DNA of 64,000 bases, taken from positions 1 through 64,000 of IMG/VR virus record IMGVR_UViG_3300020219_000012; one strand, given 5' to 3'. The notes beneath the pieces were generated by a model that saw nothing but the letters and a program-made list of their open reading frames with translations, made no database searches and was not told where the DNA came from. This document shows positions 5,278 through 61,917 of the stretch, one piece after another (position 1 is the stretch's first letter; every line of letters begins with the position of its first letter). The stretch comes from a virus. The translations under genes and the position numbers were made by a program.

Positions 5278-5288
5278 CTTATGCCAGC
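5278..5288 (-). promoter_or_regulatory. GCTGGCATAAG motif copy 1 (candidate phage promoter)
   Basis: Exact 11-mer, also at 13538, 54024, 54175, 61907; intergenic between divergent genes. Confidence 0.6.
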
Positions 5289-5304
5289 GGCGGTCAGGTG
5301 ACCC

Positions 5305-8300
5305 ATGAACCCCTTTGACCACGAGAGCCAGTTCGAGAAGATCAAGAAGGACGTTGTCGCGTCCTTTTCGAAGGCCCTGGATATCCAGGCAACCGGTACG
5401 GGGCGAAAGATTGTCGTCAAAAACGTTTGGGTCGACGACAACAAGGACTCGTCCGACTGGGAGTCTCAGCGCGAGGCGGTTCGCAAGGACAGGACTTGGG
5501 GTGTTCCCGTCTACGCCGCAATGGATCTGGTCGATCGTAAGACTGGTGCCGTGCTTTCGTCGGCAAATAAACTGAAGGTCGCAACTCTTCCCAAGACCAC
5601 AGACCTCGGCAGCTTCATCGTCGACGGAAAGCACTACCAGGTTCAGAACCAGCTTCGCCGCAAGCCCGGCGTCTACGTCACCGAGAAGAAGAACGGCGAG
5701 AAGAAGACCGAGATCAACATCGCGGGGCGACCCTTCGACATCAAGTACGACAACGAGAGCGGCGTCTTCAAGCTGATGCGTGGCGGCCTGGACTCGACTG
5801 GCGTTCCGCTCTACCCGCTCCTGTCCCGCATCGGCATCTCCGACTCGGCCATGGCCAAGGCGTGGGGCGCCGATGTCCTCGAGGCCAACAAGGCGATCAA
5901 GGAGAAGGACGCCACCAAGGCGGTCCTGAAGGCAGGCGAGTACTTCACTCGCAGTAAGCACGACTCGCCCGATGCGGCAGCTGTTGCCATCAGTAGCTTC
6001 TTTGACACCGACGCCGAGCTCAGGCCGGAGGTCACCAAGGCAACTCTTGGCAAGGAGTTCAGTCGAGTTGGCCCCGAGACGCTGCTTTACGGTTCAGCCG
6101 AGCTGCTAAAGCTCAACCGGGGACAGCGCGGCATCGACGACCGAGAGGCGCTGGAGTTCAAGAAGGCGCTTGGCACCTCCGACCTCATTGGCGAGCGGAT
6201 GATTCAGAGCACCGGCGAGCTCGCGCCCAAGCTGTCCGAGCTGCGCAAGAAGATTTTTTACCGCCTGAACAATCGCAAGGCGCCACCGACGGACATCTCC
6301 AAGCTGGTCAGCTCCAACGAGCTCAGCTCCATCTTCACCAGTTTCTTCACGCAGTCCGCCCTGGCCAACACGACCGACCAGACCAACCCGGTCAACATCT
6401 TGAACGGCATGTCCAAGATCACCATCCTGGGCGAGGGTGGCGTGCAGTCCGAGCGGGCCATCCGCGACGAGGAGCACTCGCTCCATCCGTCACACATGGG
6501 GTTCATCGATCCAATTCACACGCCCGACTCGAGCAAGATCGGCGTCGTGATGAACCTGCCACTCGGTGGCGGCAGGAAGGGCGACGACCTTCAGACTCAG
6601 ATCATCTCGATCAAGGACGGCGCAAGGCGCTGGGCGACACCGGCCGACGTGCGCGACATGGTCCTCGCTTTCCCGGACCAGTACCAGGACGGCAAGCTCA
6701 TCGGCAACAAGGTCAAAGCGATGGTTCACGGCGAGATGCAGATGGTCAGGGCCGACCAGGTCGACGCCGTCCTTGCCTCGTCGAAGCAGGCATTCTCCAT
6801 CGCATCCAACACCATCCCATTCCTTCAGTCGGCGCAGGGTGTGCGGGCCCAGATGGCGACGAAGATGATCGAACAGGCGCTCCCGCTCACCTACCGGGAG
6901 GTACCTCTGGTGCAGGTCAAGGTTGGCAAAGGGACTATCGAAAACACGATCGGCGAAGGGTTCTCGGTCCGGTCACTGAGCGATGGCGTTGTCGAAAAGG
7001 TCACGCCCAATCGCATTACCATCAGGACATCCGACGGCGTCGTCGAGCAGCCGATTTACAATAATCTCCCGCTCAACGGGAAGTCGTTCCTGCACGCTAC
7101 CGCGACCGTGAAAGCCGGCGATGAGATCAAGAAGGGTGGGGTCATCGCAGACTCCAACTTCACCAGCGGTGGAACGATGGCCCTGGGTACTAATCTGCGG
7201 GCGGCGTATATCCCGTACAAAGGCTACAACTTCGAAGACGGCATCGTCATCACCGAGGCTGCGGCCAAGAAGCTGTCCAGCGAGCACATGCATGAGCATG
7301 CGATCTCGGCCGACAAAGGCGACACGTTCTCCAAGGACGCCTTCATGGCCTGGCGCCCCGGGGCGCTCACCCCGGAGCAGCAGGAGATGCTGGACACCGA
7401 CGGTGTTGTCCGAAAGGGGCAGATCATCAAAAAGGGCGATCCGCTCTGGGTCGGGACCCGGGAGAACCGGTATGACCCCGACTACCTGGCGATGAAGAAG
7501 ATCGCACCGAACACGAACCCGCGCCGCGGTCACATGGAAGAGTGGACGGGCGACACCGACGGTGTGGTGGTCGACGTCATCAAGACCGGCAAGAAGGTCA
7601 AGGTCTACATCAAGACCGAGGAGCCGGCGCAGATCGGCGACAAGCTGACGAACAGGCACGGCGCCAAGGGCATCATCACGAAGATCATCGCCGACGGCGA
7701 AGCCCCGTATACACAGAACGCCGACGGCACTTCAGAGAAGGTCGACATCCTCCTCAACCCCCACGGCATCGTCACGCGCATCAACCCATCTCAGATCTTG
7801 GAGACGGCTGCTGCGAAGATTGCCACCAAGTCCGGCAAGCCGTACATCGTCGATAACTTCACTGGTGCCGACTACGCGCGGGACATGGCTGCGGAGCTGG
7901 CAAAGAACAAGATCTCCGACACGGAGACCCTGTACGACGCCCACAGCAAGGAGGCCCTCGGTGACGTGCTCGTCGGACCACAGTACGTGCTCAAGCTGTC
8001 CAAGCAGGCGACGTCGCAGTTCTCCGCCCGCAACGACGGCAAGTACGACATCAACCGAGCCCCGATGCGAGGTGGCGAGGACGGCGCCAAGGCGCTAGAC
8101 CTTCTGTCCTTCTACTCGATGCTGTCGCACGGCAGCCGCGCCAACCTGCGCGAGATGGCGACTTATAAGGGTTCCCAGAACGAGCACTTCTGGAACTGGC
8201 TCTCCGCTGGACACAAGAGCGGCCAGGTGGCACCGCCGCCGCAGCCAACCTTTGCGTACAGGAAGTTCGAGGCGTACCTCAACGGCGCCGGCGTAAACAC

Positions 8301-11300
8301 CAAGCGCAATGGCTCAAAGATGGTCATCCAGCCAATGACCGACAGGGAGGTTTCGAGCATGAGCTCGGGAGCCATTACTGAGCCCATCTTCGTGCGCGGC
8401 AAGGATCTGCGCGAAGAAGTTGGCGGCCTGATGGACCCAAGCATCTTCGGAGGGAAGTTCGGTGATCGGTGGGGCCATATCGAGCTCTCCGAGTCGATCC
8501 CGAACCCGGTATTCGAGAACCCCATCAAGAAGCTGACGGGGATGAATGACACGCAGTACACCGGCCTGGTCAAGGGCGATCTGTTCGTCGACCCTGCGAC
8601 CGGAGAGTGGGCGGACCACGGACTCACCGGCGGCCCGGCCATCCAGAAGATGCTGAGCGGCATCGACATCGATACCGACATCAAGTCGTGGACCGACAAG
8701 GCCAAGCAGTCCAAGACGGCGGCGAAGTTGGACGAGGCGAATAAGCGCCTGAAGTACCTGCACGCCCTCAAGAAGATTGGCGTGCGACCCGAGGACGCGT
8801 ACGTCCAGAGCAAGATCCCGATCATCCCACCGCAGTTCAGGCAGATCGTCGAGACCGACGACGGGCAGATCTCGAACCCCGGCCTCAACACGCTCTACCG
8901 AGACGTCAGCCTCATCAACAACGAGCTGGCTTGGCAGAAGGGCATCGACTACATGCCCGAGGGGTCGAAAGCCGAGCTCCGCCAGAACCTCTACGACGGC
9001 GTGGCGGCGATCTATGGCCTCGGGGATCCGATCGCCAAGTATCCAAAGATGCGCGTCCCCCAGGGCATCATCAAGCAGATTAAGGGCGAGAAAGCAGCGA
9101 AGGAAGGCTTCTTCATCAAGAGCGTCCTCAAGCGAAACCAGGACCTGGTCGGCCGCGGCACCATCATTCCGGAGCCGAAGCTGGGGCTCGACGAGGTTGG
9201 TCTACCGGAGGAGATGTCGTGGAGCATCTTCCAGCCCTTCATCACCCGCAGACTTGTCAACTCGGCCGGCAAGTCTCCGAGCGATGCCTCGAGGGAGGTG
9301 CGCGACCGCACGCCGGCGGCGAGGGCGGCCCTGGATGCGGAGATGCTCGAGCGCCCCGTCATCCTCAATCGCGCCCCGTCGCTGCACAAGTTCTCCATCA
9401 TGTCGTTCAAGCCGCAGATCACCAGCGGCAAGGCCATCAAGATTCCACCACTGGTGGTCAAGGGGTTCAACGCCGACTTCGACGGCGACGCCATGACGGT
9501 CCACGTCCCGGTGCTGCCAGATGCCGTGGAAGAGGCGAAGCGGATGCTGCCATCCAACAACCTCTACAACCCCGGCACCGGTCAGATCATGATGCAGCCA
9601 CAGAACGAGGCCGCCCTCGGACTCTTTCTGATGTCGCAGGACTCGGTAAAGAAGAACGACATCCTGGCCGCGTTACCGGCGCAGCTACAGGAGAAGTTCA
9701 AGGATGTTGAGCTGAACAAGAAGGGGCTTAGCGCCCTGACTCGCGACCTCGCCGAGGCCATGCCGCGGGATTACGGCAAGGTCCTGGATAAGCTGAAAGC
9801 CCTCGGTGACGAGCACACCTATCGGACCGGCTTCACCGTCAGCATGAAGGATTTGACGCCGAACATCCCGGGCAGGCAGGACATCTTCGACCGAACGGCG
9901 AAGTCGCTGTCGAAACTGGACTTGTCCAGCGTGGACGGTCGAGAGCAAGGCCGCCAGATCACCGGAGCCGCTAACAAAGAGCTGGACTTGGCGGTTGTCG
10001 CTGGGCTCAATGCTCAGTCGAATAACCTGAACCTCATGGTTCAGTCCGGCGCCCGCGGCAACCTGAACCAGCTCAAGCAGACGGTGTCGACGCCGTTCAT
10101 GGTCGACGACCACCGCGGCAACGCTTCGCCATTCCCGGTCATGAACTCCTTCTCCGAGGGTCTCCGATTCTCGGATTACTGGAGCACGCTGTATGGCGCT
10201 CGCGCAGCCGCTGTCGACAAGCAGCTTCAGACCAGCAAGCCGGGCGAGTTCAATAAGGACATCATGGCCACGTCGGTCGCGACCGTCATCGCCAAGGATG
10301 ACTGCGGGACCAGGGAGGGCCTCGACATCGCCACCGGCTCATCCGACGCCGAGGACAGATTCTTGGCCAAGGACATCTCGGTCAGGGGGGATGTCATTGC
10401 TCCGGCCGGAAGCCAGGTGACGGCCGGCCTCCTGAGCACCCTTCGCGACAGAAGAATCAAGACTATCGACGTTCGGTCTCCGATTACGTGTCGTCTCCCG
10501 AAGGGGGTCTGCGGGAAGTGCTACGGGCTCAATGAGCACGGCATGTCCCCGTCCATTGGCGACAACGTTGGGGCCACGTCGGGGCAGTCGATGTCCGAGC
10601 CGCTCACGCAGATGACCATGCGTACCTTCCACTCGGGCGGAATCTCCGGCACCCGCGGCGTGGTCACCGGCTACGACAAGATCGACAAGCTCCTTAAGAT
10701 GCCCGAGATCAAGAAGGGGCGCGCCACTTTGTCACAGTCCGACGGTGTCGTTGACAGCGTCTCCGTGTCCGTCGGTGCTACGGGCAGGGACGTGAAGATC
10801 GGCGGCAAGAACCACTACATCTCGAATGACCTGTGGGACCCGGGCCGGGTTCGCGTCGGCGGACAGGTGGTCAAGGGCGACATCCTCTCGTCCGGCCTGG
10901 CTCAGCCAGATGAACTCGCCAGACTAAAGGGGATGCGGTCGGCCCAGGAGTACCTGGCAAATGAGATCCAGTCCGCCTACAGCAGCCAGGGCGTCGACCT
11001 CAAGCGTCGCTCGATCGAGACGGTCATCCGCTCTGTTGGCAACACCACCAGAGTCCTTGACCCCGGCGGTAGCGAGTTCCTCCACGGCGACGTCGCGCCA
11101 TGGACCGTCGTCGAGGACTACAACGCCAGGAAGCTGGGCAAGAAAAGCCTCGAGGAGGCTCACGGCATGACACTCCAGGAGGATGTGCCAGGAGTCGCAC
11201 GCGGCACGGTGATTAACGACCGCGTCAAGAAGCTACTCGAGCGCTCCGGGCTAACGGAGATCGAAACGGGGGTGCTGCCCATCCTGCACCGCCCATTCCT

Positions 11301-11505
11301 CAAGGGCATTCAGGAGATCCCGATGATGCGCGATGACTGGATGAGCCAGATGGGCTACCGCCGTCTCAAGGGGGCCATTGTCGAGGGGGCGGCTCGAGCT
11401 GCGGAGTCTGACCTTCACGGCTACTCGCCAATCCCTGGCTTTGCCTACGGGGCGGAGTTCGGCGAAGATCCAACGGGCAAGTCCAAGACTGAGGGCGTTT
11501 ACTGA
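5305..11505 (+). CDS. DNA-directed RNA polymerase, fused beta-beta' single polypeptide
   Basis: beta motifs (GSFIVDG..QLRRKPG, DQTNP, HPSHMGFIDPIHTP, GYNFEDG, GDKLTNRHGAKG, DILLNPHGIVTRIN) followed in frame by beta' motifs (WGHIEL, NRAPSLH, NADFDGD at 9469-9489, SGARGN, CGT..RSPITC..CGKCYG, SEPLTQMTMRTFH). Confidence 0.95.
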   Translation: MNPFDHESQFEKIKKDVVASFSKALDIQATGTGRKIVVKNVWVDDNKDSSDWESQREAVRKDRTWGVPVYAAMDLVDRKTGAVLSSANKLKVATLPKTTDLGSFIVDGKHYQVQNQLRRKPGVYVTEKKNGEKKTEINIAGRPFDIKYDNESGVFKLMRGGLDSTGVPLYPLLSRIGISDSAMAKAWGADVLEANKAIKEKDATKAVLKAGEYFTRSKHDSPDAAAVAISSFFDTDAELRPEVTKATLGKEFSRVGPETLLYGSAELLKLNRGQRGIDDREALEFKKALGTSDLIGERMIQSTGELAPKLSELRKKIFYRLNNRKAPPTDISKLVSSNELSSIFTSFFTQSALANTTDQTNPVNILNGMSKITILGEGGVQSERAIRDEEHSLHPSHMGFIDPIHTPDSSKIGVVMNLPLGGGRKGDDLQTQIISIKDGARRWATPADVRDMVLAFPDQYQDGKLIGNKVKAMVHGEMQMVRADQVDAVLASSKQAFSIASNTIPFLQSAQGVRAQMATKMIEQALPLTYREVPLVQVKVGKGTIENTIGEGFSVRSLSDGVVEKVTPNRITIRTSDGVVEQPIYNNLPLNGKSFLHATATVKAGDEIKKGGVIADSNFTSGGTMALGTNLRAAYIPYKGYNFEDGIVITEAAAKKLSSEHMHEHAISADKGDTFSKDAFMAWRPGALTPEQQEMLDTDGVVRKGQIIKKGDPLWVGTRENRYDPDYLAMKKIAPNTNPRRGHMEEWTGDTDGVVVDVIKTGKKVKVYIKTEEPAQIGDKLTNRHGAKGIITKIIADGEAPYTQNADGTSEKVDILLNPHGIVTRINPSQILETAAAKIATKSGKPYIVDNFTGADYARDMAAELAKNKISDTETLYDAHSKEALGDVLVGPQYVLKLSKQATSQFSARNDGKYDINRAPMRGGEDGAKALDLLSFYSMLSHGSRANLREMATYKGSQNEHFWNWLSAGHKSGQVAPPPQPTFAYRKFEAYLNGAGVNTKRNGSKMVIQPMTDREVSSMSSGAITEPIFVRGKDLREEVGGLMDPSIFGGKFGDRWGHIELSESIPNPVFENPIKKLTGMNDTQYTGLVKGDLFVDPATGEWADHGLTGGPAIQKMLSGIDIDTDIKSWTDKAKQSKTAAKLDEANKRLKYLHALKKIGVRPEDAYVQSKIPIIPPQFRQIVETDDGQISNPGLNTLYRDVSLINNELAWQKGIDYMPEGSKAELRQNLYDGVAAIYGLGDPIAKYPKMRVPQGIIKQIKGEKAAKEGFFIKSVLKRNQDLVGRGTIIPEPKLGLDEVGLPEEMSWSIFQPFITRRLVNSAGKSPSDASREVRDRTPAARAALDAEMLERPVILNRAPSLHKFSIMSFKPQITSGKAIKIPPLVVKGFNADFDGDAMTVHVPVLPDAVEEAKRMLPSNNLYNPGTGQIMMQPQNEAALGLFLMSQDSVKKNDILAALPAQLQEKFKDVELNKKGLSALTRDLAEAMPRDYGKVLDKLKALGDEHTYRTGFTVSMKDLTPNIPGRQDIFDRTAKSLSKLDLSSVDGREQGRQITGAANKELDLAVVAGLNAQSNNLNLMVQSGARGNLNQLKQTVSTPFMVDDHRGNASPFPVMNSFSEGLRFSDYWSTLYGARAAAVDKQLQTSKPGEFNKDIMATSVATVIAKDDCGTREGLDIATGSSDAEDRFLAKDISVRGDVIAPAGSQVTAGLLSTLRDRRIKTIDVRSPITCRLPKGVCGKCYGLNEHGMSPSIGDNVGATSGQSMSEPLTQMTMRTFHSGGISGTRGVVTGYDKIDKLLKMPEIKKGRATLSQSDGVVDSVSVSVGATGRDVKIGGKNHYISNDLWDPGRVRVGGQVVKGDILSSGLAQPDELARLKGMRSAQEYLANEIQSAYSSQGVDLKRRSIETVIRSVGNTTRVLDPGGSEFLHGDVAPWTVVEDYNARKLGKKSLEEAHGMTLQEDVPGVARGTVINDRVKKLLERSGLTEIETGVLPILHRPFLKGIQEIPMMRDDWMSQMGYRRLKGAIVEGAARAAESDLHGYSPIPGFAYGAEFGEDPTGKSKTEGVY

Positions 11506-12617: not shown

Positions 12618-13049
12618 TTAGCTCAGGAAGGAGCCGACATATTGGTCGCGTTCGCGAACCGTCATCCGGGAGATGCTCCTGAGTTGAACGGCTACATCCT
12701 GATGCGGGCACTGATCGGCAATCCTCGAAGACCACGACAAGAGCTTGTCGGCGTCGACGGCGATCGAGGCGATGTTCCTGCTCAGCATGTCGGTGTCCGC
12801 GACACTCAGCTTTAGGCGGTTCACCAGCTGGCAGAGGACGTCGTCATCCGCATCCCCGTCGACCAGGGTTCGCATGGCCGACATGGCAAACGGCAGCATC
12901 CTCCATGGGTAGTACCTCGTCATCATGTCGAGGGGAGGGTGGACCTGCGCCCTGACTCCTCCGGGCATGATGGTGAACTCTCCAATGTCGAGTACTAGCG
13001 GGCTTGGGGTCACGTCAATGTCACTTAGGCGGTGGGTAAAGTAGTACAT
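12618..13049 (-). CDS. Hypothetical protein
   Basis: 143 aa, starts MYYFTH, downstream of ssb. Confidence 0.6.
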   Translation of the reverse strand: MYYFTHRLSDIDVTPSPLVLDIGEFTIMPGGVRAQVHPPLDMMTRYYPWRMLPFAMSAMRTLVDGDADDDVLCQLVNRLKLSVADTDMLSRNIASIAVDADKLLSWSSRIADQCPHQDVAVQLRSISRMTVRERDQYVGSFLS

Positions 13050-13060: not shown

Positions 13061-13483
13061 TCAGAACGGGATGTCGTCGGTGCTCGAGCCACCCGCCGGC
13101 GGTCCGTCGTCATCGGAGCGCGCCGCAGTCGGCTTGCCGTCCTTGTCCTTGCCGCTCGACGCGCCGTCGACGAAGCGGAAAAACTCGCCCTTGACCTCGC
13201 GGCGGTACTGCTTCACGCCATCCTTGTCAGGGTAGCTGCGAGTCTTGGTCTTGCCCTCGATGTAGATCGACCCGCCCTTGCCGAAGTACTTGAAGATGGT
13301 CTCGGCCTGCTTCCCCCAGAAGCTCACCTCGAACCACTCAGTCTCCTTATGGGTGTTGCCGCTCTTGTCCGTCCAGGACTCATCGGTTGCCACGCTGAAC
13401 GACGTCACCGACGAGTCGCCGATGACCTTGTTCTCCGGATCTTTGCCCAGTCTTCCGAGAATGATCTGCTTGTTCACTGACAC
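13061..13483 (-). CDS. ssb: Single-stranded DNA-binding protein
   Basis: VNKQIILGRLGKDPE..FSVATDESW..TEWF..KGGSIYIEG; acidic C-terminus DDIPF; AAGGAG RBS. Confidence 0.93.
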   Translation of the reverse strand: MSVNKQIILGRLGKDPENKVIGDSSVTSFSVATDESWTDKSGNTHKETEWFEVSFWGKQAETIFKYFGKGGSIYIEGKTKTRSYPDKDGVKQYRREVKGEFFRFVDGASSGKDKDGKPTAARSDDDGPPAGGSSTDDIPF

Positions 13484-13537: not shown

Positions 13538-13548
13538 CTTATGCCAGC
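13538..13548 (-). promoter_or_regulatory. GCTGGCATAAG motif copy 2 upstream of ssb
   Basis: Exact 11-mer; shares AAAACCCTTATGCCAGCG (18 nt) with copy 1. Confidence 0.65.
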
Positions 13549-17384: not shown

Positions 17385-18269
17385 GTGCGCTACCCCTACG
17401 AGAGATTCCTTAGATTCCTCGTTTCGCGCAAGGTTGACCCCAACCAGACGCTGAAGCGATACGGGCTTCCGCCCGTGAGCTCGCTATGGATCTCCGACTG
17501 TCGATCTGGGTTCCGCAGGTCAGCCCCGCACGCTCTTGTGCGGCACCTGGACTCCGACGATACCGAGCTCCTGACGACGGATGGCGTCGCGGAGTGGGCA
17601 GAGCGAGAGGGGATTCGCCTGCTCTGGGAGATTCAGCCGGAGCTCGGCGGCCTTGCGATGGCCAGGGAGCTGGACCTCTCGGCGAGGATCTTCGCCAACC
17701 AACAGGCCCGCCTGCGACTGGGGTTGTTTCTATTTTCGAAGGCTACCTCGTCCGAGATCGCCGAGCTCGCGGCCATCCACTTCGACATGGAGATCGATCC
17801 GCTCGTCATCGAGACGTATCGGAAGATCTTCTGGGATTCGCAGGCCGTTCCAAGTGGCGACTGGGAAACGCTCATCGACGCGATGGACAGGGACGAGCGC
17901 CACTACCTGGCGCTGGGATTCGAGAGACCAACCCTTGAGAACGTCCAGTGCATCCTGGGCATGAAGTACTCGCTGGAGCCCGATGCCGTCCTCAGGCGGT
18001 TGATGAATACCTCCATTGAGCAGTATGACTTGGCCATGAAGCAGCCGATTCCAGCGTCAGCCGACGCGTTGCGCTGGGGTGAGATGGCAAAGCAGGCGGC
18101 GGTCGCGCTGGCCGCCCATGTCCCCAAGAAGGCTCCCGAATCGTCGATTCCGAACGACTTTAACGGCCTGTTCACGGTTCAAATCTCCAAGTCCAACCAC
18201 ATCTCCCTGGCAAACCTGCAGGGTCGGGTAGGGGCGCCCTTGCCGCCCAAGCCCCCCGAGGAGGCGTAA
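17385..18269 (+). CDS. Putative terminase small subunit / hypothetical protein
   Basis: Helical 294-aa ORF coupled (TAATG) to terminase large subunit; assignment by position only. Confidence 0.4.
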   Translation: MRYPYERFLRFLVSRKVDPNQTLKRYGLPPVSSLWISDCRSGFRRSAPHALVRHLDSDDTELLTTDGVAEWAEREGIRLLWEIQPELGGLAMARELDLSARIFANQQARLRLGLFLFSKATSSEIAELAAIHFDMEIDPLVIETYRKIFWDSQAVPSGDWETLIDAMDRDERHYLALGFERPTLENVQCILGMKYSLEPDAVLRRLMNTSIEQYDLAMKQPIPASADALRWGEMAKQAAVALAAHVPKKAPESSIPNDFNGLFTVQISKSNHISLANLQGRVGAPLPPKPPEEA

Positions 18270-20059
18270 TGGAGGGCCCAGATCTCGAGGGCGACGATAG
18301 CGACCTGGAGGCGGACCCATTTGACTTCACAGGCAAGGAGATCGATCACGACGCTCCGGCGTTCGCCAACGACGTCAAGCGGGACGGCCAGTATGACTGG
18401 GAGCCACGCCTCACCCAGCTGACCCGACCCGGCAAGGCACGCCCAACCTTCCAGGGCCGCAAGAGCGACATTGCCCAGGCCGTGCTCTATCACCTTGGCC
18501 GGCCGCTCCGCCTCGACAACCACGCCTTCATGCTCCCCATCTACAACGATGAGGATGAGCGCCTGGTAATGAAGTGCAGTCGACAGGTTTCGAAATCCAC
18601 GACTGTCTGCAACCTGCAAATTATCGAATCGATCATTCGCCCGCACTGGCGGTCTCTCTACGTCTCGCCGTCCGCCCTCCAGACGCGGCAGTACTCCAAC
18701 GAGAAGCTGCGGCCGACGCTGATCGAGTCCCCGTTCGTCCAGCGCTACCTGTTCAACAAGGGCGTCACGGACCAGGTCTTCGAGAAGACCCTCGCTAACG
18801 GCTCGTACATCTTCCTGCGTTACGCCTTCCTCACGGCCGCTCGAGCTCGAGGCATCCCAGCCAGCCGCGTCTTCTTCGACGAGGCTCAGGATCTCCTCAA
18901 GGACAACATCAAGGTCATCAGCCAGTCGCTGTCGGCGTCGCGGCTCTCGATGGGTGTCCCGGGCAAAGAGATGATTACCGGCACCCCGTTGACCTTCTCG
19001 AACGCGCTCGAGGAGTACTGGCAGTGGTCCACCCAGAACGAATGGATGGTCCCCTGCGACTGCACCGGCGGCGAATCGGGCCGTTACTGGAATTACCTGG
19101 ACGCTCGCAGCATCGGCAGGAAGGGGCTGATCTGCTCGAAGTGCGGCAAGGCCATCAATCCGGCGCAGGGTCAGTGGGTCAGCTTCGCTCCAAATGAGTT
19201 CTACGTCGGCTACCACATCTCACAGCTGATGGTCCCGTGGAAGCAGAGCGAGGACGCCTGGCGGACCGAGATCGTTATGCCGCACGAGAAATGGCCGGAG
19301 TCGAAGTTCAACAATGAGATCTTGGGGATCTCCTACGACAATGCATCCGCGCCGGTTACGCGCATGGACATCCAGCAGAACTGCTGGCCGGTCAAGAAGC
19401 ACGAAGGCATCGACAGCTCGAACTTCACTTACTCGCGGGGGCCGGCCCATAGCGGCCTGCGCATCTTTGCCGGCATCGACTGGGGCGAAGGTCGCGAAGA
19501 GGGTGAGGTCAACTCGGGCAGGAAGAAGTTCGCTTCTTGGACCGTCCTGACCCTCGGAGCCTACGTCAACGCCGAGACCTTCTGGCCCTTCATGATGAAG
19601 CGGTACGTCGGCAAGGAGGTCGATCCGGAGCTAATCCTCCCCGACGTCGAACACATCTGCGCCCACTGGAACGTCGAAATCATCGGCGCCGACTGGGGTC
19701 ACGGATGGGGCATGAACAGCCGCCTGTTCAAGAGCCGTGGGAGGGAAGGCGTCATGCAGTTTGCCTACTCCGCCAACCTTGGCGAGCGCAAGCGCTGGGA
19801 CTCCAACGCCTACAAGTTCATCGTCAATCGGAACGCTGCCATGTCCACCTTTTTTGGTGACATCAAGCAGGGGAATTTCATGTTCCCCGCCTGGGACGCC
19901 TTCGAGCCATTCGCCAAGGACATCCTGGCCGAGTACGTAGAGTACAACGATCGCACCCGGACTATGATGTACGACCATCCTATCGACCAACCGGATGACG
20001 CCCTCCACAGCATGGTTTATGCGAAACTCGCCGCCGACATCACCCTCGGAAAGTTCTAG
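18269..20059 (+). CDS. terL: Terminase large subunit (lambda GpA-like)
   Basis: KCSRQVSKST Walker A, FFDEAQD Walker B, ITGTP motif III, CxC..CxxC Zn module, nuclease IFAGIDWG..GADWG..PDDALHS. Confidence 0.88.
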   Translation: MEGPDLEGDDSDLEADPFDFTGKEIDHDAPAFANDVKRDGQYDWEPRLTQLTRPGKARPTFQGRKSDIAQAVLYHLGRPLRLDNHAFMLPIYNDEDERLVMKCSRQVSKSTTVCNLQIIESIIRPHWRSLYVSPSALQTRQYSNEKLRPTLIESPFVQRYLFNKGVTDQVFEKTLANGSYIFLRYAFLTAARARGIPASRVFFDEAQDLLKDNIKVISQSLSASRLSMGVPGKEMITGTPLTFSNALEEYWQWSTQNEWMVPCDCTGGESGRYWNYLDARSIGRKGLICSKCGKAINPAQGQWVSFAPNEFYVGYHISQLMVPWKQSEDAWRTEIVMPHEKWPESKFNNEILGISYDNASAPVTRMDIQQNCWPVKKHEGIDSSNFTYSRGPAHSGLRIFAGIDWGEGREEGEVNSGRKKFASWTVLTLGAYVNAETFWPFMMKRYVGKEVDPELILPDVEHICAHWNVEIIGADWGHGWGMNSRLFKSRGREGVMQFAYSANLGERKRWDSNAYKFIVNRNAAMSTFFGDIKQGNFMFPAWDAFEPFAKDILAEYVEYNDRTRTMMYDHPIDQPDDALHSMVYAKLAADITLGKF

Positions 20060-28170: not shown

Positions 28171-28194
28171 CGTGAAGCCTCCTTTCTGATCTAC

Positions 28195-40837: not shown

Positions 40838-40876
40838 TCCATTGACCGACTGCTGGTCTGAGGATACCGTCACCCC

Positions 40877-50846: not shown

Positions 50847-51159
50847 CCCATATATCGATGGATAGGGTCCGGACCTTCGTAAGGTCCTGGCCCTTGAATT
50901 GTTCAGAACGAATGTAACCCTCGATCGTCACCCAGGAGCCCAGTCGGGCCTCGCGTGCGACCTTCTCGGCGTCCCTGCCGACCACCTCTACCAGCACGCG
51001 GTTCTTGCGTGCTCTGGCCTCACCGTCTGGATTGAGCCAGCTTTCGACCATGCATAGCTGAAAAGAAGTCAGCTTCGTCCTGGGACTGAGTGAACTGACC
51101 GTTGGCGTCGAGACCACAGTCCCCTGAAGCCAAGTCCGGTTGATGAACGGTGGCGGCAT
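50761..51159 (-). CDS. Second SSB-like OB-fold protein
   Basis: INRTWLQG..P..SFQLC..ESW..VEVVG..AE..LGSWVTIEGYIRS; no DDIPF tail. Confidence 0.7.
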   Translation of the reverse strand: MPPPFINRTWLQGTVVSTPTVSSLSPRTKLTSFQLCMVESWLNPDGEARARKNRVLVEVVGRDAEKVAREARLGSWVTIEGYIRSEQFKGQDLTKVRTLSIDIWGDHDQRPTHDDGGEAASSPRPGSDTSSI

Positions 51160-51508
51160 TTCGTTCCTGTGACTCTGCCATAGCCATGCGTAGTTTGCGC
51201 AAGGCGCTTACCTCGATCTGCCTGACCCGCTCCCGGGTCAAGTCCATCGCATCGCCAATCTCGTCGAGCGTGTGGGACCCGCCGGCCTCGGCTCCAACGA
51301 AGGTGCAGTTCATGTACCCCGCCTGCCTGATGGCGAAGGGGCAGCCGCGATTGGTGCACGGCTCATTCGGGAAGACCTGCCGCAAGTCCGGGCATCGGTC
51401 GGCCAGCACGCGACTCGGCGTTCCGATGATCCGATTCACCTCTTCGGTGTTGAACTCGCGCTTGATTCTCACGGTGTGTCTGTTCCTGGGGTTACTGCGC
51501 CGGGTCAA
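51020..51508 (-). CDS. Stand-alone sigma70 region-4 HTH protein with Cys-rich N-terminus
   Basis: HTLDEIGDAMDLTRERVRQIEVSALRKLR; four Cys upstream; start uncertain. Confidence 0.8.
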   Translation of the reverse strand: MTRRSNPRNRHTVRIKREFNTEEVNRIIGTPSRVLADRCPDLRQVFPNEPCTNRGCPFAIRQAGYMNCTFVGAEAGGSHTLDEIGDAMDLTRERVRQIEVSALRKLRMAMAESQERNAATVHQPDLASGDCGLDANGQFTQSQDEADFFSAMHGRKLAQSRR

Positions 51509-52596: not shown

Positions 52597-53982
52597 TTAT
52601 CCAATCGGCATCACGATCGCCTTAAACTGCTCATCCTCGCCGCGGATCGTAACGGGCGAGGTTGCCTGATCTTTGGTGGGCGCAAACCCTAGTCGGATAA
52701 GGCCACTCTTGCACGCCAGTACAGCGGTCAGCAGGAAGCTGGCGTCGATTGCGACGTTGACCGAGGCCGGTCCGTCGAATCTCCTGGCCCCAATGGATTC
52801 CTTGAAACGCCGCCCCGACGGACCCGCGGAGGTGATGCTCAGCTCGTCACGTAAGACGTCGACGGCCAGCTCGATCCGCGTGTCGCCCTCGCCTCCATCG
52901 AGCTTCTTGAGGACGCGCTCGAGCTCGAGGCGGTCAACCGACCAGTGACCGCGATGGCCGGCATTTACAGACCGCCAGTTTTCCAGTCCCTGGGTCCCGG
53001 TGGCGCCCTTCATGGTCGCGTCGGCGACGGCCTGGTAGTCCGCGCCGCGGGCCACTATCTGAGTTTCGCTGATCTCGATGGCCGTCCATTCGCGATTGGC
53101 CACCGTCCGCAGATAGCGGAAGAACTGCTCACCCACCACAATGCCCGGAGGCAGCACACTGCCACGAGGCTGGACCTTCATCTGCGGCAGCTCGAGAATA
53201 TGAAGGCGTACGCCGTCGGTGCCGACCGCCGTGCACACCACGGTTCGGTTGGCATCCAGGCTGAAATCGAACAGCACCCCATGCAGACCTGGGCGCGTCG
53301 GATCTTTCGAGGTGGCGGCCATGACCCGGTTGCAGATCTCCTCGAAGTAGAAGGCGGGGACCACCGCCCTAGCCTCCCATGCACGAATGAGTGGCCGAGA
53401 TGGGAAGATGGCTTGGTCGGCGGTCTGCGGCATGCAGTGCTTTCCAATCCAGAACCGCCCGTCGCTCACTCCGACGGGGACTGTCTTGAAATTCTGTCGC
53501 ATTGCATTCGCCGCACTCCTGGCGCGGCGGGCGGGCACGATGGCCGAGAAGCCAGCGCCGCCGGGCTTCGCCACGCCTACCGCAACGGCGGTCCACAGGG
53601 ACGTTGAGGCGGCCTCCACGGTCATGCGATCCGAGTCCGGCTCATAGCCAAGCCTGACGTTGGACAGGAAGGGTAGCGCCTTGGTTGAGGGGATCGCCTT
53701 CTCGGCCGCGGACAGGAATCCGAACAGCACCTCACTGTCGATCTCCACCCCTACAACCCGTCGGTCGGTGGCGGACGAGCTGGAGACGAAGCAGTCCGTG
53801 GGTGGCTTGGCCTTCCTCTTGACCTGCGATTCGTGACGTAGCTCCTCCGCGGTGACGATCTCCACCTCGCGAACCGGCACGGCGTCCGTCTCTGTCAGTC
53901 GGGCCTTCCGTGGTGGGCGGCGTGGGGCGAGGATCTCGGTCGCCAGGGTGGCCGGCGACAGCTTGTTTTCCATGGTGGGCAT
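52597..53982 (-). CDS. dnaN: DNA polymerase III beta sliding clamp-like protein
   Basis: PFLSNV, KDPTRPGLHGVLF, VGTDGVRL, IDASFLL, SPVTIRG..FKAIVMPI. Confidence 0.75.
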   Translation of the reverse strand: MPTMENKLSPATLATEILAPRRPPRKARLTETDAVPVREVEIVTAEELRHESQVKRKAKPPTDCFVSSSSATDRRVVGVEIDSEVLFGFLSAAEKAIPSTKALPFLSNVRLGYEPDSDRMTVEAASTSLWTAVAVGVAKPGGAGFSAIVPARRARSAANAMRQNFKTVPVGVSDGRFWIGKHCMPQTADQAIFPSRPLIRAWEARAVVPAFYFEEICNRVMAATSKDPTRPGLHGVLFDFSLDANRTVVCTAVGTDGVRLHILELPQMKVQPRGSVLPPGIVVGEQFFRYLRTVANREWTAIEISETQIVARGADYQAVADATMKGATGTQGLENWRSVNAGHRGHWSVDRLELERVLKKLDGGEGDTRIELAVDVLRDELSITSAGPSGRRFKESIGARRFDGPASVNVAIDASFLLTAVLACKSGLIRLGFAPTKDQATSPVTIRGEDEQFKAIVMPIG

Positions 53983-54023
53983 CGGTCGTTCTCCTGGATC
54001 CCGTGACGTCGGGGTCCAGATCT

Positions 54024-54034
54024 CTTATGCCAGC
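54024..54034 (-). promoter_or_regulatory. GCTGGCATAAG motif copy 3 upstream of dnaN-like gene
   Basis: Exact 11-mer directly after a terminator. Confidence 0.65.
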
Positions 54035-54035: not shown

Positions 54036-54073
54036 AAAAAAGTGACCTCTCCCCGCGTGGGGAGGGAGAGGTC
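54036..54073 (-). terminator. Intrinsic terminator
   Basis: Minus strand GACCTCTCCC..GGGAGAGGTC-ACTTTTTT. Confidence 0.75.
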
Positions 54074-54174
54074 CACGGCACAGGTGCGCCCCCACACACG
54101 ACGCCAACATCAAATCCATCGCGTTCCACCGAAACGAAGGATTCGATTATTGGATACCTGCTCCTCTCGTAACT

Positions 54175-54185
54175 CTTATGCCAGC
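54175..54185 (-). promoter_or_regulatory. GCTGGCATAAG motif copy 4
   Basis: Exact 11-mer overlapping the stop codon of 54176..54640. Confidence 0.5.
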
Positions 54186-54640
54186 AAAGAGGCGTCGATC
54201 GGCGTGCCGCGGGGCAGCTCGTCGATGACGGTCGGGTCAAGGAACTCAACATCCGCAAGGCCGCGGTCATCGACAACATCCCGGAACCGCAACGAGAACT
54301 CGATGTTCACGGTTGACGAGTGTCCGTTCGGGTGACAGACCCCGAGCCTGCAGCGCCCACTGGCCTCGTAGGTCTGGGCCTCACCGGCCTTGCCGCCTGT
54401 CGAGCTCGGCTGGGTCAGGACCTGGATCTTGTTGTTGGCGATGAAGTAGCGGCAGCCACTGGGATGGCCGTCGCTCATCTTGGTGAGCGCCTTGCGCAGC
54501 GCACAGATCATCTTCTCGTTCGGCGTCAGCGTGGCCACGCGCTTCGCCTTGCGATCAAGGCGATGGTTGACGGTCGCCGGGATGATGTTGCTGGTCGGCG
54601 CCTTGCGTTGGGCGGCGAACATTTCTTTGCGGATATGCAT
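54176..54640 (-). CDS. Hypothetical protein
   Basis: 154 aa. Confidence 0.65.
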   Translation of the reverse strand: MHIRKEMFAAQRKAPTSNIIPATVNHRLDRKAKRVATLTPNEKMICALRKALTKMSDGHPSGCRYFIANNKIQVLTQPSSTGGKAGEAQTYEASGRCRLGVCHPNGHSSTVNIEFSLRFRDVVDDRGLADVEFLDPTVIDELPRGTPIDASLLA

Positions 54641-54644: not shown

Positions 54645-55820
54645 CTACTCTACCTCGCTTTCATCATCCTCAGCATCCCCCAGCCGATAGCCACGGAACT
54701 CGGTCTTGACCTTGGTCTTCTGGATCTGGGCGATGTCGGATTCGAGTCCCGGGTTGGCCCGAGTCGCGACCTTGAGGAACTTCTTGAGCTTGCGGGAGTC
54801 TATGCTGGCCACCTCCTGGATTTCATGGCCGTACTCCATCAGGACATCAAGCAGCTCCTGCATGTCCCAGACTGCCGACGCCTTGGATCGGTACCCCCAG
54901 CACCACTTGTCGCCGATAACGACGGAGTCGTTCTCTTTGACGTAGGCCTTGAGGCGGGCCTTGAGCTCCTTGCTGAGGGCGTCCATGACAGTGATCCGCT
55001 GGGCGGCGTCGATGGCCTGGTCTTGGCTGATGACCTGGGTGTTTGTGACACTCAGATCCTGCGACAGCGGGCAGTGCTGGATGACATCGCAGTACTGGCA
55101 GTGCTTGCCGGGGATCGGATCCCAGTTCGAGATCTCCAGGATCTTCTGCTCCTTGAGCATCAGCGTCTGCTCAAAGAGCTGAAGGTCTTTGACGGTCCTC
55201 TTGGTCTCCGCGTAGAAGCCGTACCGCAGGTACCAGATCCTGGCCGTGTACTCCTCGATGTGAGGATACAGCTTGGATGCCAGCCAGCAGTACATGGTCA
55301 GCTGCTCATGGGCGTCCAGCTCGGCCTGGGTCATGACATGCGGCTGGCTCTTCCAGTCCGTGACCGTGCAGTGCTTCTTGTTAACATCAACGACGTCAAG
55401 AATGCCGCGGTAACTGGCGTTGTCCCACTCGGTATCATCGAACGCCTCATCGAGGGCGACCTTCTCCTCCACGCCGTAGATGTGCTTTGAGATCTGATAT
55501 CGCTCCGCCCACAGCCGAACCCAGGACATGATTTCGCCGATCTCGGCGAGGATGGTGTGCGGGGTGTGGCTGGCTACCGCGTCGGAGATCTGGTCCAGCG
55601 ACAGGCTGCTGGGCTGGATCTGCGCCTCCTGGCAAAGGGAGATGAGCTCCGCGATCGCCTCGTGACAGGCGGACCCGCGCTCGGCGGCTACTCGGATATA
55701 GCGATCGTCGACCTTGTCGATGTAGTGGAGTTTCAGATACCTGGGACAAGCGGCGTTGGTCAGAAAAGAGGGTGAAAGTTTCAGGGACAGTTCCTGCCCC
55801 AGGACCTTCAGCTTCTTCAT
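54645..55820 (-). CDS. RecB/Cas4-like PD-(D/E)xK exonuclease
   Basis: SPS..CPR, RGSACH, RGILDVV..TDWKS, QLTMY, CQYC..C Fe-S-type cysteines. Confidence 0.85.
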   Translation of the reverse strand: MKKLKVLGQELSLKLSPSFLTNAACPRYLKLHYIDKVDDRYIRVAAERGSACHEAIAELISLCQEAQIQPSSLSLDQISDAVASHTPHTILAEIGEIMSWVRLWAERYQISKHIYGVEEKVALDEAFDDTEWDNASYRGILDVVDVNKKHCTVTDWKSQPHVMTQAELDAHEQLTMYCWLASKLYPHIEEYTARIWYLRYGFYAETKRTVKDLQLFEQTLMLKEQKILEISNWDPIPGKHCQYCDVIQHCPLSQDLSVTNTQVISQDQAIDAAQRITVMDALSKELKARLKAYVKENDSVVIGDKWCWGYRSKASAVWDMQELLDVLMEYGHEIQEVASIDSRKLKKFLKVATRANPGLESDIAQIQKTKVKTEFRGYRLGDAEDDESEVE

Positions 55821-56824
55821 TGCGTGACTTCAGTCCCCGGCGGTAGCGCCGTCGTAACGGACTGGGTGACGGCCGCCGCCTTCGCAGCAGACTTGGCCCT
55901 CGCCGACTCCTCCTCCTTGACCTTGCCCTCGAGGATCTCGATCAGCTTGGCGTCGACCGCGTACTTCTTGAGAGAGGCCAGGCGCTTTGCTTCTGGTGCG
56001 CCGAGCTTGTCGAACAACTCCTTGATGCGCGGGGTCGCCAGGCGCTCGCGCTCGAGCGGCGTGGGACCGTCTTCGCCTTCCGCGGCAACCTGCGCCAGGG
56101 GCTGGCGCATCACCTCAGGCTCGTTGGTGCCGTCCGTGAGCCAGTCGCGCAGGACCTTGGCGACCTGGGCACCCGGCTTCTCGATGTACTGACCGTCCAG
56201 ATCGGAGCAGCGTGTCTTGGTGATCGACAGCGCATGGTCATTGTTCATGTCGCCGACGACATCGAACTCGTACTCAAGGCCATCCCGCTGAACCGGAGCC
56301 AGACCAATCTTCTTGGGAGCCGTCTTGCCAGTGCGCTCGTCCTTCTCCAGGACGTACTCGGTCTTGGTCCTCATCGTGGCGATGACGTGAGCGCTGGAGC
56401 GAAGGACGCCCTCCACCATGCTGTTGTGCTGCGGGGTAACGTCCCGCCAGGCGTTGAAGGAGCTGCCACTGTTCGAGCGCTTGGCCGAACGATCCACCTG
56501 CTCCAGGGCGCCATCCTTGCCGGTCCAGGCGTGCGACAGGGAGTCGATGACGATCACGTCATAGCCTGCCGCGTCAGCCGCCGAGATCGCCTCGACGTAC
56601 TTGGCCGGAGCGAAGCTGGCGAGCTCGAGGACATCGAACTCAAACTTGCCAGCGTACTTGGAGGCCGAGCCGCGCTCCGTGTCGATGACGGCAACCCGGC
56701 CGCCGGGCACGAGGTTGCAGGCGATTGCCAAGGCGGAGTAGGTCTTGCCGCTGCCCGCGGGGCCGATGAGGGCGATGCGCAGGCGGGCCTGCTTCTTGGT
56801 GGCCTTAACGAAATTCAAGCTCAT
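55817..56824 (-). CDS. AAA ATPase (Sak4-like recombinase)
   Basis: GPAGSGKT, VIDTERGS, VIDSLSHAW, QRDGLEYEFD, ITKTR. Confidence 0.85.
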   Translation of the reverse strand: MSLNFVKATKKQARLRIALIGPAGSGKTYSALAIACNLVPGGRVAVIDTERGSASKYAGKFEFDVLELASFAPAKYVEAISAADAAGYDVIVIDSLSHAWTGKDGALEQVDRSAKRSNSGSSFNAWRDVTPQHNSMVEGVLRSSAHVIATMRTKTEYVLEKDERTGKTAPKKIGLAPVQRDGLEYEFDVVGDMNNDHALSITKTRCSDLDGQYIEKPGAQVAKVLRDWLTDGTNEPEVMRQPLAQVAAEGEDGPTPLERERLATPRIKELFDKLGAPEAKRLASLKKYAVDAKLIEILEGKVKEEESARAKSAAKAAAVTQSVTTALPPGTEVTQ

Positions 56825-56908
56825 GAGTCAGATCCTTTACCGGAGTGATGCCGGGGTGAAACGAACAGGGGCGCCAGCAACATGCCGCGCCCCGTCTGTC
56901 CTAAGAAC

Positions 56909-56919
56909 CTTATGCCGGC
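56909..56919 (-). promoter_or_regulatory. GCCGGCATAAG motif variant upstream of the ATPase
   Basis: 1 mismatch to the 11-mer; intergenic. Confidence 0.55.
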
Positions 56920-59422: not shown

Positions 59423-59424
59423 GG

Positions 59425-60715: not shown

Positions 60716-60995
60716 CTTGCTCCTTGAGTCGTCGGGCCTCTCGATCCCGGCGAACTTTCTGTTCGTGGCCTGATTGCAAACGCTTCGCCCGGCCGTCGAG
60801 GGCACTGGCGATTGCTGTGTATTGATCCGGGAACTCCTCTAGCAGTTGGTCGACTACATCATCCAGCGCGGCGTCGATCGCTGAGGCGATCTGGCGCATG
60901 GCGCGCCCCTTGAGCATCGTCGTCTCCACGCCTGGATCGATCTTGAACAGGAACAGCTGCGGCGGCGGCGGCTCGTTGTTGTCATCTCCGTCCAT
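60552..60995 (-). CDS. Hypothetical protein
   Basis: GAGGAG RBS, MDGDDNNEP; C-terminus overlaps next gene. Confidence 0.5.
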   Translation of the reverse strand: MDGDDNNEPPPPQLFLFKIDPGVETTMLKGRAMRQIASAIDAALDDVVDQLLEEFPDQYTAIASALDGRAKRLQSGHEQKVRRDREARRLKEQDGAAVNGRADGPVQGGVQAVSGQESRPGCESKRSAGSNGGHVPTARPVEVERKP

Positions 60996-61317
60996 CTGAC
61001 TCCTCGTAGAGAACTCTGGCCTGCATCTCGGCACTTCGTGCCGAGCGAGCGAGCTTTTTCATTTTGTCGGTCTCGAATAGGCGTCGGTCATGAGCAGAGT
61101 CCGCCGACCGCTCCAGCATCCGTAACACAGTTGCCCGAGGTCCTTCCACACGAGACAGCTCCAACCGAAACATAAACCGCCGAGATTTCTCCAGGAGCAG
61201 AAGGCTGCGGACTCTATGGCGGGATGCGCGATACGATCCCCAAAAACTACTCGAACGGCGCATCTGAGCCTCGGCCCCCTTGGGCGCAGCGTAGTTGATG
61301 ACTTGCCACTCCCCCAT
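60982..61317 (-). CDS. Basic hypothetical protein
   Basis: GAGGAGG RBS. Confidence 0.55.
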   Translation of the reverse strand: MGEWQVINYAAPKGAEAQMRRSSSFWGSYRASRHRVRSLLLLEKSRRFMFRLELSRVEGPRATVLRMLERSADSAHDRRLFETDKMKKLARSARSAEMQARVLYEESDGRR

Positions 61318-61333
61318 GCCCGGCCTCCTCTGG

Positions 61334-61362
61334 TTGACGGTTTGAATGGCTAGGTTGATACT
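61334..61362 (+). promoter_or_regulatory. sigma70-like promoter
   Basis: TTGACG-N17-GATACT upstream of 61425. Confidence 0.5.
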
Positions 61363-61424
61363 CTCTGGCCTGGGCGCAGGGCGGAATCTCCCGCTTCTGC
61401 CATGAACTCTAGAAGGAGATCCCC

Positions 61425-61823
61425 ATGGCCCGCACGAAGCTCTCGATCAAAGAAACCCGCAATCTCACCAAGCTCAACCGCGCGATCTCCGTCGCCTCCA
61501 AGCTGGAGGACGCCGACGACTACTTCGACGCGATTGAGACCACGGTCTACTCGGCGGCCGGCGCGATCGCCGTCACCGATGGACTGTCCGTCCTCACGGC
61601 CACCGGCGTCGCCCAGGCGATGACCCTGGCCGACGGCACCGTGGTTGGTCAGCAGATGGCCCTCATCATGCGCAGCACGACCACCGGCGGCAGCATGGTC
61701 GTCACTGGCACCTTCACGGGTGGCACGACCCTGACCTTCGATGCGGTTAGCGAGCGCGCCAAGCTCATCTGGGTCGGCGCGGCCTGGACGCCGGTCCCCG
61801 GCTACAGCGCAACGCTTGCCTAG
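61425..61823 (+). CDS. Putative virion (decoration/fibre-like) protein
   Basis: AAGGAG RBS; TLADGTVVGQ..LIWVGAAW beta domain. Confidence 0.6.
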   Translation: MARTKLSIKETRNLTKLNRAISVASKLEDADDYFDAIETTVYSAAGAIAVTDGLSVLTATGVAQAMTLADGTVVGQQMALIMRSTTTGGSMVVTGTFTGGTTLTFDAVSERAKLIWVGAAWTPVPGYSATLA

Positions 61824-61906
61824 CAAGTAGCTTGCCTGCCATGTGCAGGTGGAGTATCGGGGTCCGTCATCGCAAGGTGGCGGGCCCTAGCCCTTTCTGC
61901 ATTGTC

Positions 61907-61917
61907 CTTATGCCAGC
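61907..61917 (-). promoter_or_regulatory. GCTGGCATAAG motif copy 5
   Basis: Exact 11-mer, intergenic. Confidence 0.55.

Follow-up and report, generated by a model that had tools for sequence, protein, structure and literature searches.

A strand-specific 8-nt word as a putative promoter class in a phage lineage with its own RNA polymerase

The first 64,000 nucleotides of the IMG/VR virus record IMGVR_UViG_3300020219_000012 (100,342 bp, estimated completeness 55%), here called the window, carry a short sequence that is repeated in one orientation. Which enzyme reads this word, and which genes does it serve? An earlier note on the window had described an 11-mer, CTTATGCCAGC, as a single-block early promoter of the phage RNA polymerase (RNAP) that defines a replication and recombination regulon. 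The analysis reported here arrives at a modified reading: the word GGCATAAG on the minus strand is probably a phage-specific promoter class, which would be read by a phage sigma factor, most likely together with the single-chain RNAP of the phage.

Copies, strand and geometry of the word

On the plus strand, CTTATGCCAGC occurs exactly at 5278, 13538, 54024, 54175 and 61907. A copy with one mismatch, CTTATGCCGGC, is found at 56909, and the core CTTATGCC occupies 28194-28201. These are the positions listed before, the variant and the core included, and all were confirmed in a recount. With up to one mismatch allowed, there are six matches where 0.60 would be expected; in 100 shuffles, a count of six was never attained. 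The conserved unit is shorter than the 11-mer proposed earlier. It is the 8-mer CTTATGCC, i.e. GGCATAAG read on the minus strand, whereas the GCT that extends GGCATAAG to the 11-mer is particular to the studied genome and missing from orthologous sites in relatives. The genome-wide scan suggested in the earlier note yielded ten copies of CTTATGCC in the whole record (0.58 expected) and none on the other strand, so that the claim of a uniform orientation is borne out. Past the end of the window, copies are located at 64393, 91659 and 93233. Low-complexity words aside, CTTATGCC is the top-ranked 8-mer of the record.

All ten copies lie outside called open reading frames (ORFs), with at most a stop-codon overlap (54175, TAA of ORF 54176-54640). 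Seven are embedded in minus-only gene runs (28194, 54024, 54175, 56909, 64393, 91659, 93233). The copies at 5278 and 13538 are divergent from a plus-strand gene, the RNAP gene and ORF 13570, respectively, and the copy at 61907 is placed between the plus-strand genes 61425-61823 and 61949-62545. A minus-strand terminator T-run directly precedes 54024 and 91659, and another is located 28 nt upstream of 93233. The copies in minus-only runs and the two directly behind a minus-strand terminator support an action on the minus strand, as had been proposed.

The site profile comprises eight fixed positions and no -35-like element, in agreement with a single-block signal. Position +6 after the word holds a pyrimidine and position +7 a purine in 10 of 10 sites of the record, in 29 of the 36 GGCATAAG sites of the clade and in 29 of 30 sites of Salmonella phage Arash (see below). 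At any other offset (8 to 23), such a step was present at no more than eight sites of the clade. In sigma70 promoters, transcription starts 7 nt after the -10 hexamer. The hexamer is numbered T-12ATAAT-7 (PMC7598289). Because the pyrimidine-purine step has the spacing of the hexamer (-12 to -7) to the start, the word would correspond to G-14 G-13 C-12 A-11 T-10 A-9 A-8 G-7. A-11 to A-8 agree with TATAAT; G-7 does not, yet it is invariant. The resulting hexamer, CATAAG here and TATAAG in Arash and Vibrio phage D69, deviates from the T-7 of the housekeeping consensus TATAAT. Its invariant G-7 excludes the word from the canonical sigma70 promoters, though it would work in a -10-like manner. Many sites run on into GAAGGAGG and an ATG within 18-25 nt, which would give short leaders. 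The copies within the window, their predicted minus-strand starts and an associated terminator are:

5278 to 5288, minus strand: copy GCTGGCATAAG with the core at 5278-5285; predicted start 5271; heads the RNAP-adjacent island
13538 to 13548, minus strand: copy GCTGGCATAAG; predicted start 13531; heads ssb (13061-13483) and ORF 12618-13049
28194 to 28201, minus strand: core-only copy GGCATAAG; predicted start 28187; 23 nt before the ATG of ORF 27736-28170
54024 to 54034, minus strand: copy GCTGGCATAAG, directly after a terminator T-run; predicted start 54017; heads the clamp gene 52597-53982
54044 to 54073, minus strand: intrinsic terminator with an 11-bp stem and then T6; closes the Sak4 operon as well as the 133-nt unit
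54175 to 54185, minus strand: copy GCTGGCATAAG; predicted start 54168; heads a 133-nt non-coding unit up to the terminator
56909 to 56919, minus strand: copy GCCGGCATAAG; predicted start 56902; followed by an 84-nt leader with a hairpin and a Sak4-like ATPase gene
61907 to 61917, minus strand: copy GCTGGCATAAG; predicted start 61900; between two plus-strand genes

Other assignments of the word were tried and rejected. Upstream of the word, weak signals at distances of -18, -15 and -14 misfit the TTGACA spacing of a -35 box and probably reflect the shared ancestry of orthologous sites. A sigma54 promoter (TGGCAC-N5-TTGC, with GG at -24 and GC at -12) is approached by the TGGCAT of five copies, but the place of TTGC is variable and a conserved -12 GC is lacking. 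Conservation of ATAAG would also be unexpected for sigma54. Promoters of sigma28 (FliA) have the -10 element GCCGATAA and the -35 element TAAA at a fixed spacing. The sites have no conserved upstream element, and GGCATAAG resembles GCCGATAA but differs from it. An operator of a dimeric repressor, expected to have dyad symmetry or repeated half-sites on either strand, was dismissed on account of the non-palindromic word, which is present in single copies, all 43 of them with the same strand preference.

The word in relatives and in cultured phages

Using the RNAP, clamp and sigma proteins as probes, six related metagenomic phage records were recovered (G001 to G006). The RNAP of the studied phage is 76% identical to that of G001, 86% to that of G002 and 60% to that of G004. 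Clamp identities amount to 41% (G004), 45% (G003) and 37% (G005). G006 was found by its sigma, which is 65% identical to the G002 sigma. At the DNA level, no relatives emerged when 18 kb were compared with the phage collection by megablast. Together, the seven records contain 43 copies of GGCATAAG. Every one lies on the strand opposite to that of the RNAP and sigma genes; the other strand has none. In six records, about 32 of 36 copies lie outside called ORFs, although non-coding DNA makes up only about 11%. Eight additional sites with the variant GGCACAAG were counted in six of the records.

The region upstream of the clamp gene was aligned for four phages, whose clamps are 37-45% identical. 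The word is the sole long invariant block, and its flanks have diverged. A terminator precedes it in three of the four regions, with a changed stem sequence. Before the clamp gene, G003 and G004 retain the order of terminator, motif, ribosome-binding site and ATG; G005 likewise retains the motif. The same pattern of a kept word in diverged flanks was observed before Sak4, SSB, the RNAP-adjacent island and the unit at 64393. Orthologous Sak4 copies follow '...CAG stop' in G003, G004 (as GGCACAAG) and G005. In G004, a genome of 68% GC, two of the eight GGCACAAG sites (T to C at -10) replace GGCATAAG at 38413 and 41373 (L031, L032), before Sak4 and the clamp gene. Nine other sites of G004 keep GGCATAAG. 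Orthologous promoters thus tolerate GGCACAAG as a natural variant.

Salmonella phage Arash (OQ632216.1, 53% GC) is a cultured carrier of nearly the same word. GGTATAAG, which differs from GGCATAAG by C to T at -12 only, is the top 8-mer of the Arash genome: the non-virion strand has 30 copies and the opposite strand a single one (1.35 expected). Of the 30 sites, 26 have T at +6, and all have a purine at +7. A Shine-Dalgarno sequence and a start codon are present within 90 nt after 27 of the 30. Arash shares with the studied phage the strand exclusivity, the pyrimidine-purine step 7 nt on, and the placement of the word ahead of the Shine-Dalgarno sequence and ATG of non-virion genes and behind terminators. 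It also has a homologous RNAP adjoining the portal gene and the sigma gp10. In contrast to the single 2066-aa chain of the studied phage, beta and beta' are annotated as two genes in Arash, and the discriminator, variable in the studied phage, is AT-rich and conserved in Arash (tAAagT-G-T-A). The description of Arash reports no promoters (PMC10585845); the GGTATAAG sites were observed in the present analysis.

Vibrio phage D69 (OZ195729.1, 45% GC) represents a looser form. G[T/C/G]TATAAG has 39 copies on one strand, the minus strand, and 9 on the other. The exact word GGYATAAG is not enriched in D69 (5 and 9 copies, no more than a control word). The sites show the same downstream T-purine step and, some 17 nt before the word, a -35-like TTCAAYA box. 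The D69 orthologue of gp10 is 44% identical. Downstream, tAAyaT-G/A is conserved, and the promoter class of this branch is two-part.

The proposal of a phage signal gains from the retention of the word in the relatives and, as GGTATAAG, in Arash. G-7 is invariant everywhere it was examined, at more than 70 sites in phages of different hosts. That G-14, ATAAG and G-7 persist across phages of Salmonella, Vibrio and high-GC hosts argues for a phage-encoded reader.

The candidate reader and rival explanations

Two candidate transcription proteins are encoded in the window:

5305 to 11505, plus strand: single-chain beta-beta' RNAP, 2066 aa; candidate catalytic core reading the motif
51020 to 51508, minus strand: sigma70 region 4-only protein, 162 aa; PF04545 with 42.2 bits (cut-off 24.1); phrog_351, sigma factor

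The RNAP has matches to the Pfam families of Rpb2 domains 3 and 6 and of Rpb1 domains 1, 2, 4 and 5 (PF00562, PF04565, PF04997, PF00623, PF05000, PF04998) and to PHROG RNAP beta families. NADFDGD is invariant in the RNAPs of four relatives. The gene is located on the virion-gene strand between those for the portal (907-2883) and the large terminase (18269-20059). In tblastn searches, its closest cultured homologues were from the Vibrio phages D69, D148 and D181 and from Salmonella phage Arash, with about 30-33% identity. A search for a T7-type RNAP (PF00940) gave no match and was uninformative, as its controls were likewise unmatched.

Mass spectrometry of Arash virions detected the RNAP beta subunit (Gp206) with the most spectra, along with beta' (Gp216) and the sigma Gp10 (PMC10585845). 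Sigma factors of the Arash gp10 type are encoded in G002 and G004, in the virion block about 25 kb upstream of the RNAP gene, and also in G006. The G002 sigma aligns to regions 2-4 of SigA (E 7.8e-7). A sigma70 region 2 was not found in the 100-kb record. Judged by synteny with G002 and G004, the gp10-type gene of the studied phage would lie beyond the left contig end. The protein encoded at 51020-51508 has a Cys-rich segment before its sigma70 region 4. It may be part of the phage transcription apparatus, as a -35/flap-binding accessory or an appropriator.

A model of the complex between the G002 sigma and RNAP residues 740-1440 scored 0.71, while the best of three controls scored 0.00. Of 80 solved complexes, 58 reach the mark applied to this score, as do 2 of 110 mismatched pairs. 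The runs share at least 46% of contacts, and the partner has a predicted local distance difference test (pLDDT) value of at least 65. The interface joins RNAP 1196-1228 with sigma 73-89, which we read as the canonical contact of clamp helix and sigma region 2. Sigma-core complexes have already been solved, so the pass may reflect likeness only and is no proof.

The extended -10 geometry, combined with the sigma70-family factor encoded in the lineage, points to a phage sigma as the reader. This modifies the earlier claim of a signal read by the phage RNAP: the polymerase keeps its place as the probable partner, and recognition itself should fall to the sigma.

A second promoter class was found on the virion strand. 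Sites of the form TTGAC(C/G)-N16/17-TAC..T or GATACT are located on the plus strand at 28880-28908, 39005-39032, 40842-40870 and 61334-61362. Orthologous sites exist in G002, G003 and G004, and a few are on the other strand. This TTGAC-N17-TAnnnT class looks like host housekeeping-type promoters. The minus strand has similar sites near 48620 and at 73157-73186 and 89540-89569. The predicted start of the 40842 site is the A of the ATG at 40877, which probably gives a leaderless mRNA.

These parts can be joined into a proposed mechanism. GGCATAAG on the minus strand would serve as an extended -10-type recognition element that does without a -35 box, the predicted start being a purine 7 nt past its final G. 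The reader would be a divergent sigma70-family factor of the Arash gp10 family, encoded in the virion-gene block of the lineage and working with the phage's own single-chain RNAP. As RNAP and sigma were both detected in Arash virions, the holoenzyme is probably delivered with the DNA. It would then switch on the non-virion units, i.e. those for SSB, the clamp and Sak4 plus nuclease, the function-unassigned units and the islands in the virion block. Virion genes would instead carry the ordinary TTGAC-N17-TAnnnT promoters. The term 'early' promoter draws on the virion location of the Arash homologues, which is its only basis; the timing itself is thus retained as a presumption.

Other explanations were weighed against this mechanism. 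The phage sigma may redirect the host core to GGCATAAG, in the manner of T4 gp55 or SPO1 gp28, and leave another signal to the phage RNAP. The motif geometry implies only a sigma-type factor, many phage sigmas use the host core (PMC7824862), and the TTGAC-N17-TAnnnT class could be the signal of the phage RNAP. That class, however, resembles ordinary host housekeeping promoters, RNAP and sigma are both present at high levels in Arash virions, and it is the phage RNAP that the sigma touches in the modelled clamp-helix contact, subject to the caveat of likeness; a host core as the partner is judged rather unlikely. Ordinary host sigma70 promoters of the extended -10 type would make a phage factor unnecessary. 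They are suggested by TGGCATAAG in five of ten copies and by T-15 in 18 of 30 Arash sites (giving TGnTATAAg), by the match of A-11, T-10, A-9 and A-8 to TATAAT and by a pyrimidine-purine step at the sigma70 distance. This origin of the word is quite unlikely in view of its invariant G-7, since T-7 is a key sigma70 contact (PMC7598289), and of its eight fixed positions, which host promoter populations do not show. Moreover, T-15 is not retained at orthologous sites, the same genomes hold separate normal TTGAC-N17-TAnnnT promoters, and the word follows the phage lineage over Salmonella, Vibrio and high-GC hosts.

The word might also act as the operator of a phage DNA-binding regulator or, at the RNA level, as a processing or leader signal, as three copies are situated 17-31 nt before plus-strand start codons (5305, 13570, 61949) and leader hairpins follow two copies. 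Both functions appear improbable: unlike dimeric operators, the word is asymmetric, single-copy and strictly strand-specific, and its distance to the start codon varies from 18 to 85 nt while the pyrimidine-purine step is fixed. Seven of the ten copies have no plus-strand gene to serve, and the two copies directly after terminator T-runs would rarely be transcribed from upstream. A remaining suggestion is that CTTATGCC serves the plus-strand genes at 5305, 13570 and 61949, for instance through a TATG-type start motif. CTTATGCC indeed includes TATG, the start-site motif of phiKZ late promoters (PMC7598289), and stands just upstream of these three start codons. A plus-strand start would, however, yield antisense RNA only at the seven copies in minus-only runs, the word shares its strand with the downstream Shine-Dalgarno sequence and ATG in all relatives, and no other virion gene is preceded by a copy; this use of the word is highly improbable.

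Several points weigh against the promoter class read by sigma and the phage RNAP. Promoter function and start site are inferred from sequence, and reader and timing are inferences as well. The orthologous sites of close relatives are non-independent observations. In D69, the looser word and the -35-like box show that the strict single-block form is not universal. The sigma gene is off the record, whose completeness is about 55%, and its presence is derived from synteny. A complex model with a bacterial beta' would probably pass as well, and the results do not separate phage core and host core as partners of the sigma. TGG(C/T)ATAAG resembles the host extended -10 element (TGnTATAAT), and some use by the host RNAP is possible. 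The leader hairpins at 54024 and 56909 and the antisense copy at 61907 indicate that some copies may also act in regulation, in addition to serving as plain operon promoters.

Transcription units and comparison with known systems

The minus-strand targets named in the earlier note, i.e. the island at 5192, ssb, the clamp gene behind a terminator and the Sak4/nuclease operon, agree with ORF, Pfam and terminator positions. Several units end at a terminator (predicted start 13531 to about 12591, 28187 to about 27711, 54168 to 54044, and two more beyond the window), which makes them promoter-to-terminator cassettes. Islands inside the structural region are likewise supported: at 5278, 13538 and 28194, the motif heads self-contained units within the virion block.

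The island at 5278 is divergent from the RNAP gene and consists of an ORF from 5192 followed by ORF 4547-5041. The orthologous copy of the word is kept in G001, G002, G004, L027 and L028, and the 164-aa ORF of the island is conserved in G001, G002 and G004. The 85-nt leader (5193-5277, minus strand) is conserved at the nucleotide level in G002, L027 and L028 (AGCTTACCCG..AAC, CCAACATCTC) and partially in G001. Located beside the RNAP gene, it may be a regulatory leader. Downstream of the 13538 copy, ssb matches PF00436, and the T-run of the terminator that ends the unit is near 12591. Orthologous copies are present in G001, G002 and L026. A terminator also stands behind ORF 27736-28170 (T-run near 27711).

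The DnaN-like clamp gene matches PF02767 and PF02768, both under the Pfam cut-off. Between the 54024 copy and the ribosome-binding site of the clamp gene, a hairpin with a stable 10-bp stem is located at 53994-54019 (minus strand). The operon behind the 56909 copy comprises, in this order, the genes of the Sak4-like ATPase (55817-56824, PF13479) and a PD-(D/E)XK nuclease (54645-55820) and ORF 54176-54640. Its leader contains an attenuator-like hairpin at 56855-56885 (minus strand), GGGGCGC...GCGCCCC with a T-rich run. The 133-nt unit (54036-54168, minus strand) has no convincing ORF (-0.62 bits per codon) and no Rfam match, the Rfam search of 48-64 kb having given none. The unit, a candidate small RNA, has a stable predicted fold (-60.1 kcal/mol, z -4.0). 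In G005, two motif copies stand 228 nt apart before the clamp gene.

The copy at 61907 does not directly head a minus-strand gene, as had been assumed, because it is flanked by the plus-strand genes 61425-61823 and 61949-62545. The transcript predicted from 61900 would run antisense through 61425-61823 towards the minus-strand gene 60982-61317. The minus-strand ORF 61350-61826 was rejected as a target in favour of the plus-strand ORF 61425-61823, which has the better codon usage score (0.48 vs -0.13 bits per codon), a strong Shine-Dalgarno sequence and better tblastn matches in distant relatives. The placement between both orthologous genes is kept in G003 (41379) and G004 (29546), which suggests a control by convergent transcription. 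The two genes form a plus-strand island (61318-62545) without assigned function inside a minus-strand region. This island carries its own TTGACG-N17-GATACT promoter, and 61425-61823 has paralogues in G004.

Most downstream ORFs received no function from Pfam and PHROG searches. A replication and recombination regulon, as originally proposed, describes only the units of SSB, clamp and Sak4 plus nuclease (three of ten). The remaining units comprise function-unassigned genes, an HNH-type endonuclease, the 133-nt non-coding unit and an antisense/long-leader unit.

In jumbo phages that encode an RNAP, early operons are preceded by a conserved motif, about 10 nt long and centred at -10, which the virion RNAP reads (PMC7598289). 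The 8-nt block at predicted -14 to -7, upstream of minus-strand units, corresponds to this phiKZ/AR9-type arrangement. Both are short conserved motifs near -10, precede non-virion operons and can be found bioinformatically. The RNAP is likewise a virion protein in Arash, a relative of the studied phage. RNAPs of the phiKZ/AR9 type differ in being split into four to five subunits with no sigma homologue by sequence, whereas the studied lineage has a single chain close to bacterial beta/beta' and a sigma70-family factor. Their motifs are AT-rich and unrelated in sequence to GGCATAAG. With the sigma70 extended -10 element (TGnTATAAT), the class shares the independence from a -35 box, the span from -15/-14 to -7, A-11 T-10 A-9 A-8 and, as predicted from the pyrimidine-purine step, a start at a purine 7 nt past the hexamer. 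It departs from that element in eight fixed positions, with G-7 always, C-12 in the clade, an invariant GG at -14/-13 and an optional T-15.

T4 late promoters (TATAAATA) are read by gp55, a region-2-like sigma, with gp33. The gp33 protein and minimal sigmas are discussed elsewhere (PMC7824862). Like the proposed class, T4 late promoters are single-block, -35-less, -10-type signals specific to a phage sigma-like factor; in T4, however, the host core transcribes late virion genes, while the studied class precedes non-virion genes in a phage with its own core. The virion RNAP of N4 is a T7-like single-subunit enzyme that recognizes DNA hairpins. The logic of the proposed scheme is similar, in that a virion-carried RNAP transcribes the first genes and host-type sigma70 promoters serve the virion genes, but enzyme and signal are both unrelated to those of the studied phage.

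A literature search found no paper describing a GG(C/T)ATAAG promoter class; GGCATAAG and GGTATAAG matched only unrelated primers. According to reviews, phages with multisubunit RNAPs have no recognizable sigma, and sigma-bearing phages have no polymerases (PMC7598289, PMC7824862, PMC13282480). The studied lineage seems to have both, in addition to a clean 8-nt promoter word. Chances are about even that the whole lineage, from Arash to uncultured high-GC phages, carries in its virions a compact single-chain core and a sigma that has evolved to demand G rather than T at -7 (GG[C/T]ATAAG), and thereby uses a private code that the host holoenzyme ignores and that functions in widely different hosts. 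The phage enzyme would then run the non-virion genes and host-type promoters the virion genes. If true, one core chain, one sigma and an 8-nt promoter would constitute a minimal, host-orthogonal system of bacterial type with possible use as a tool, and a natural example of altered -7 base specificity in a sigma. With the word as a guide, transcription units could also be annotated across a large phage family, most of which is uncultured. The cultured Salmonella phage Arash with its one-letter variant makes the idea testable at the bench.

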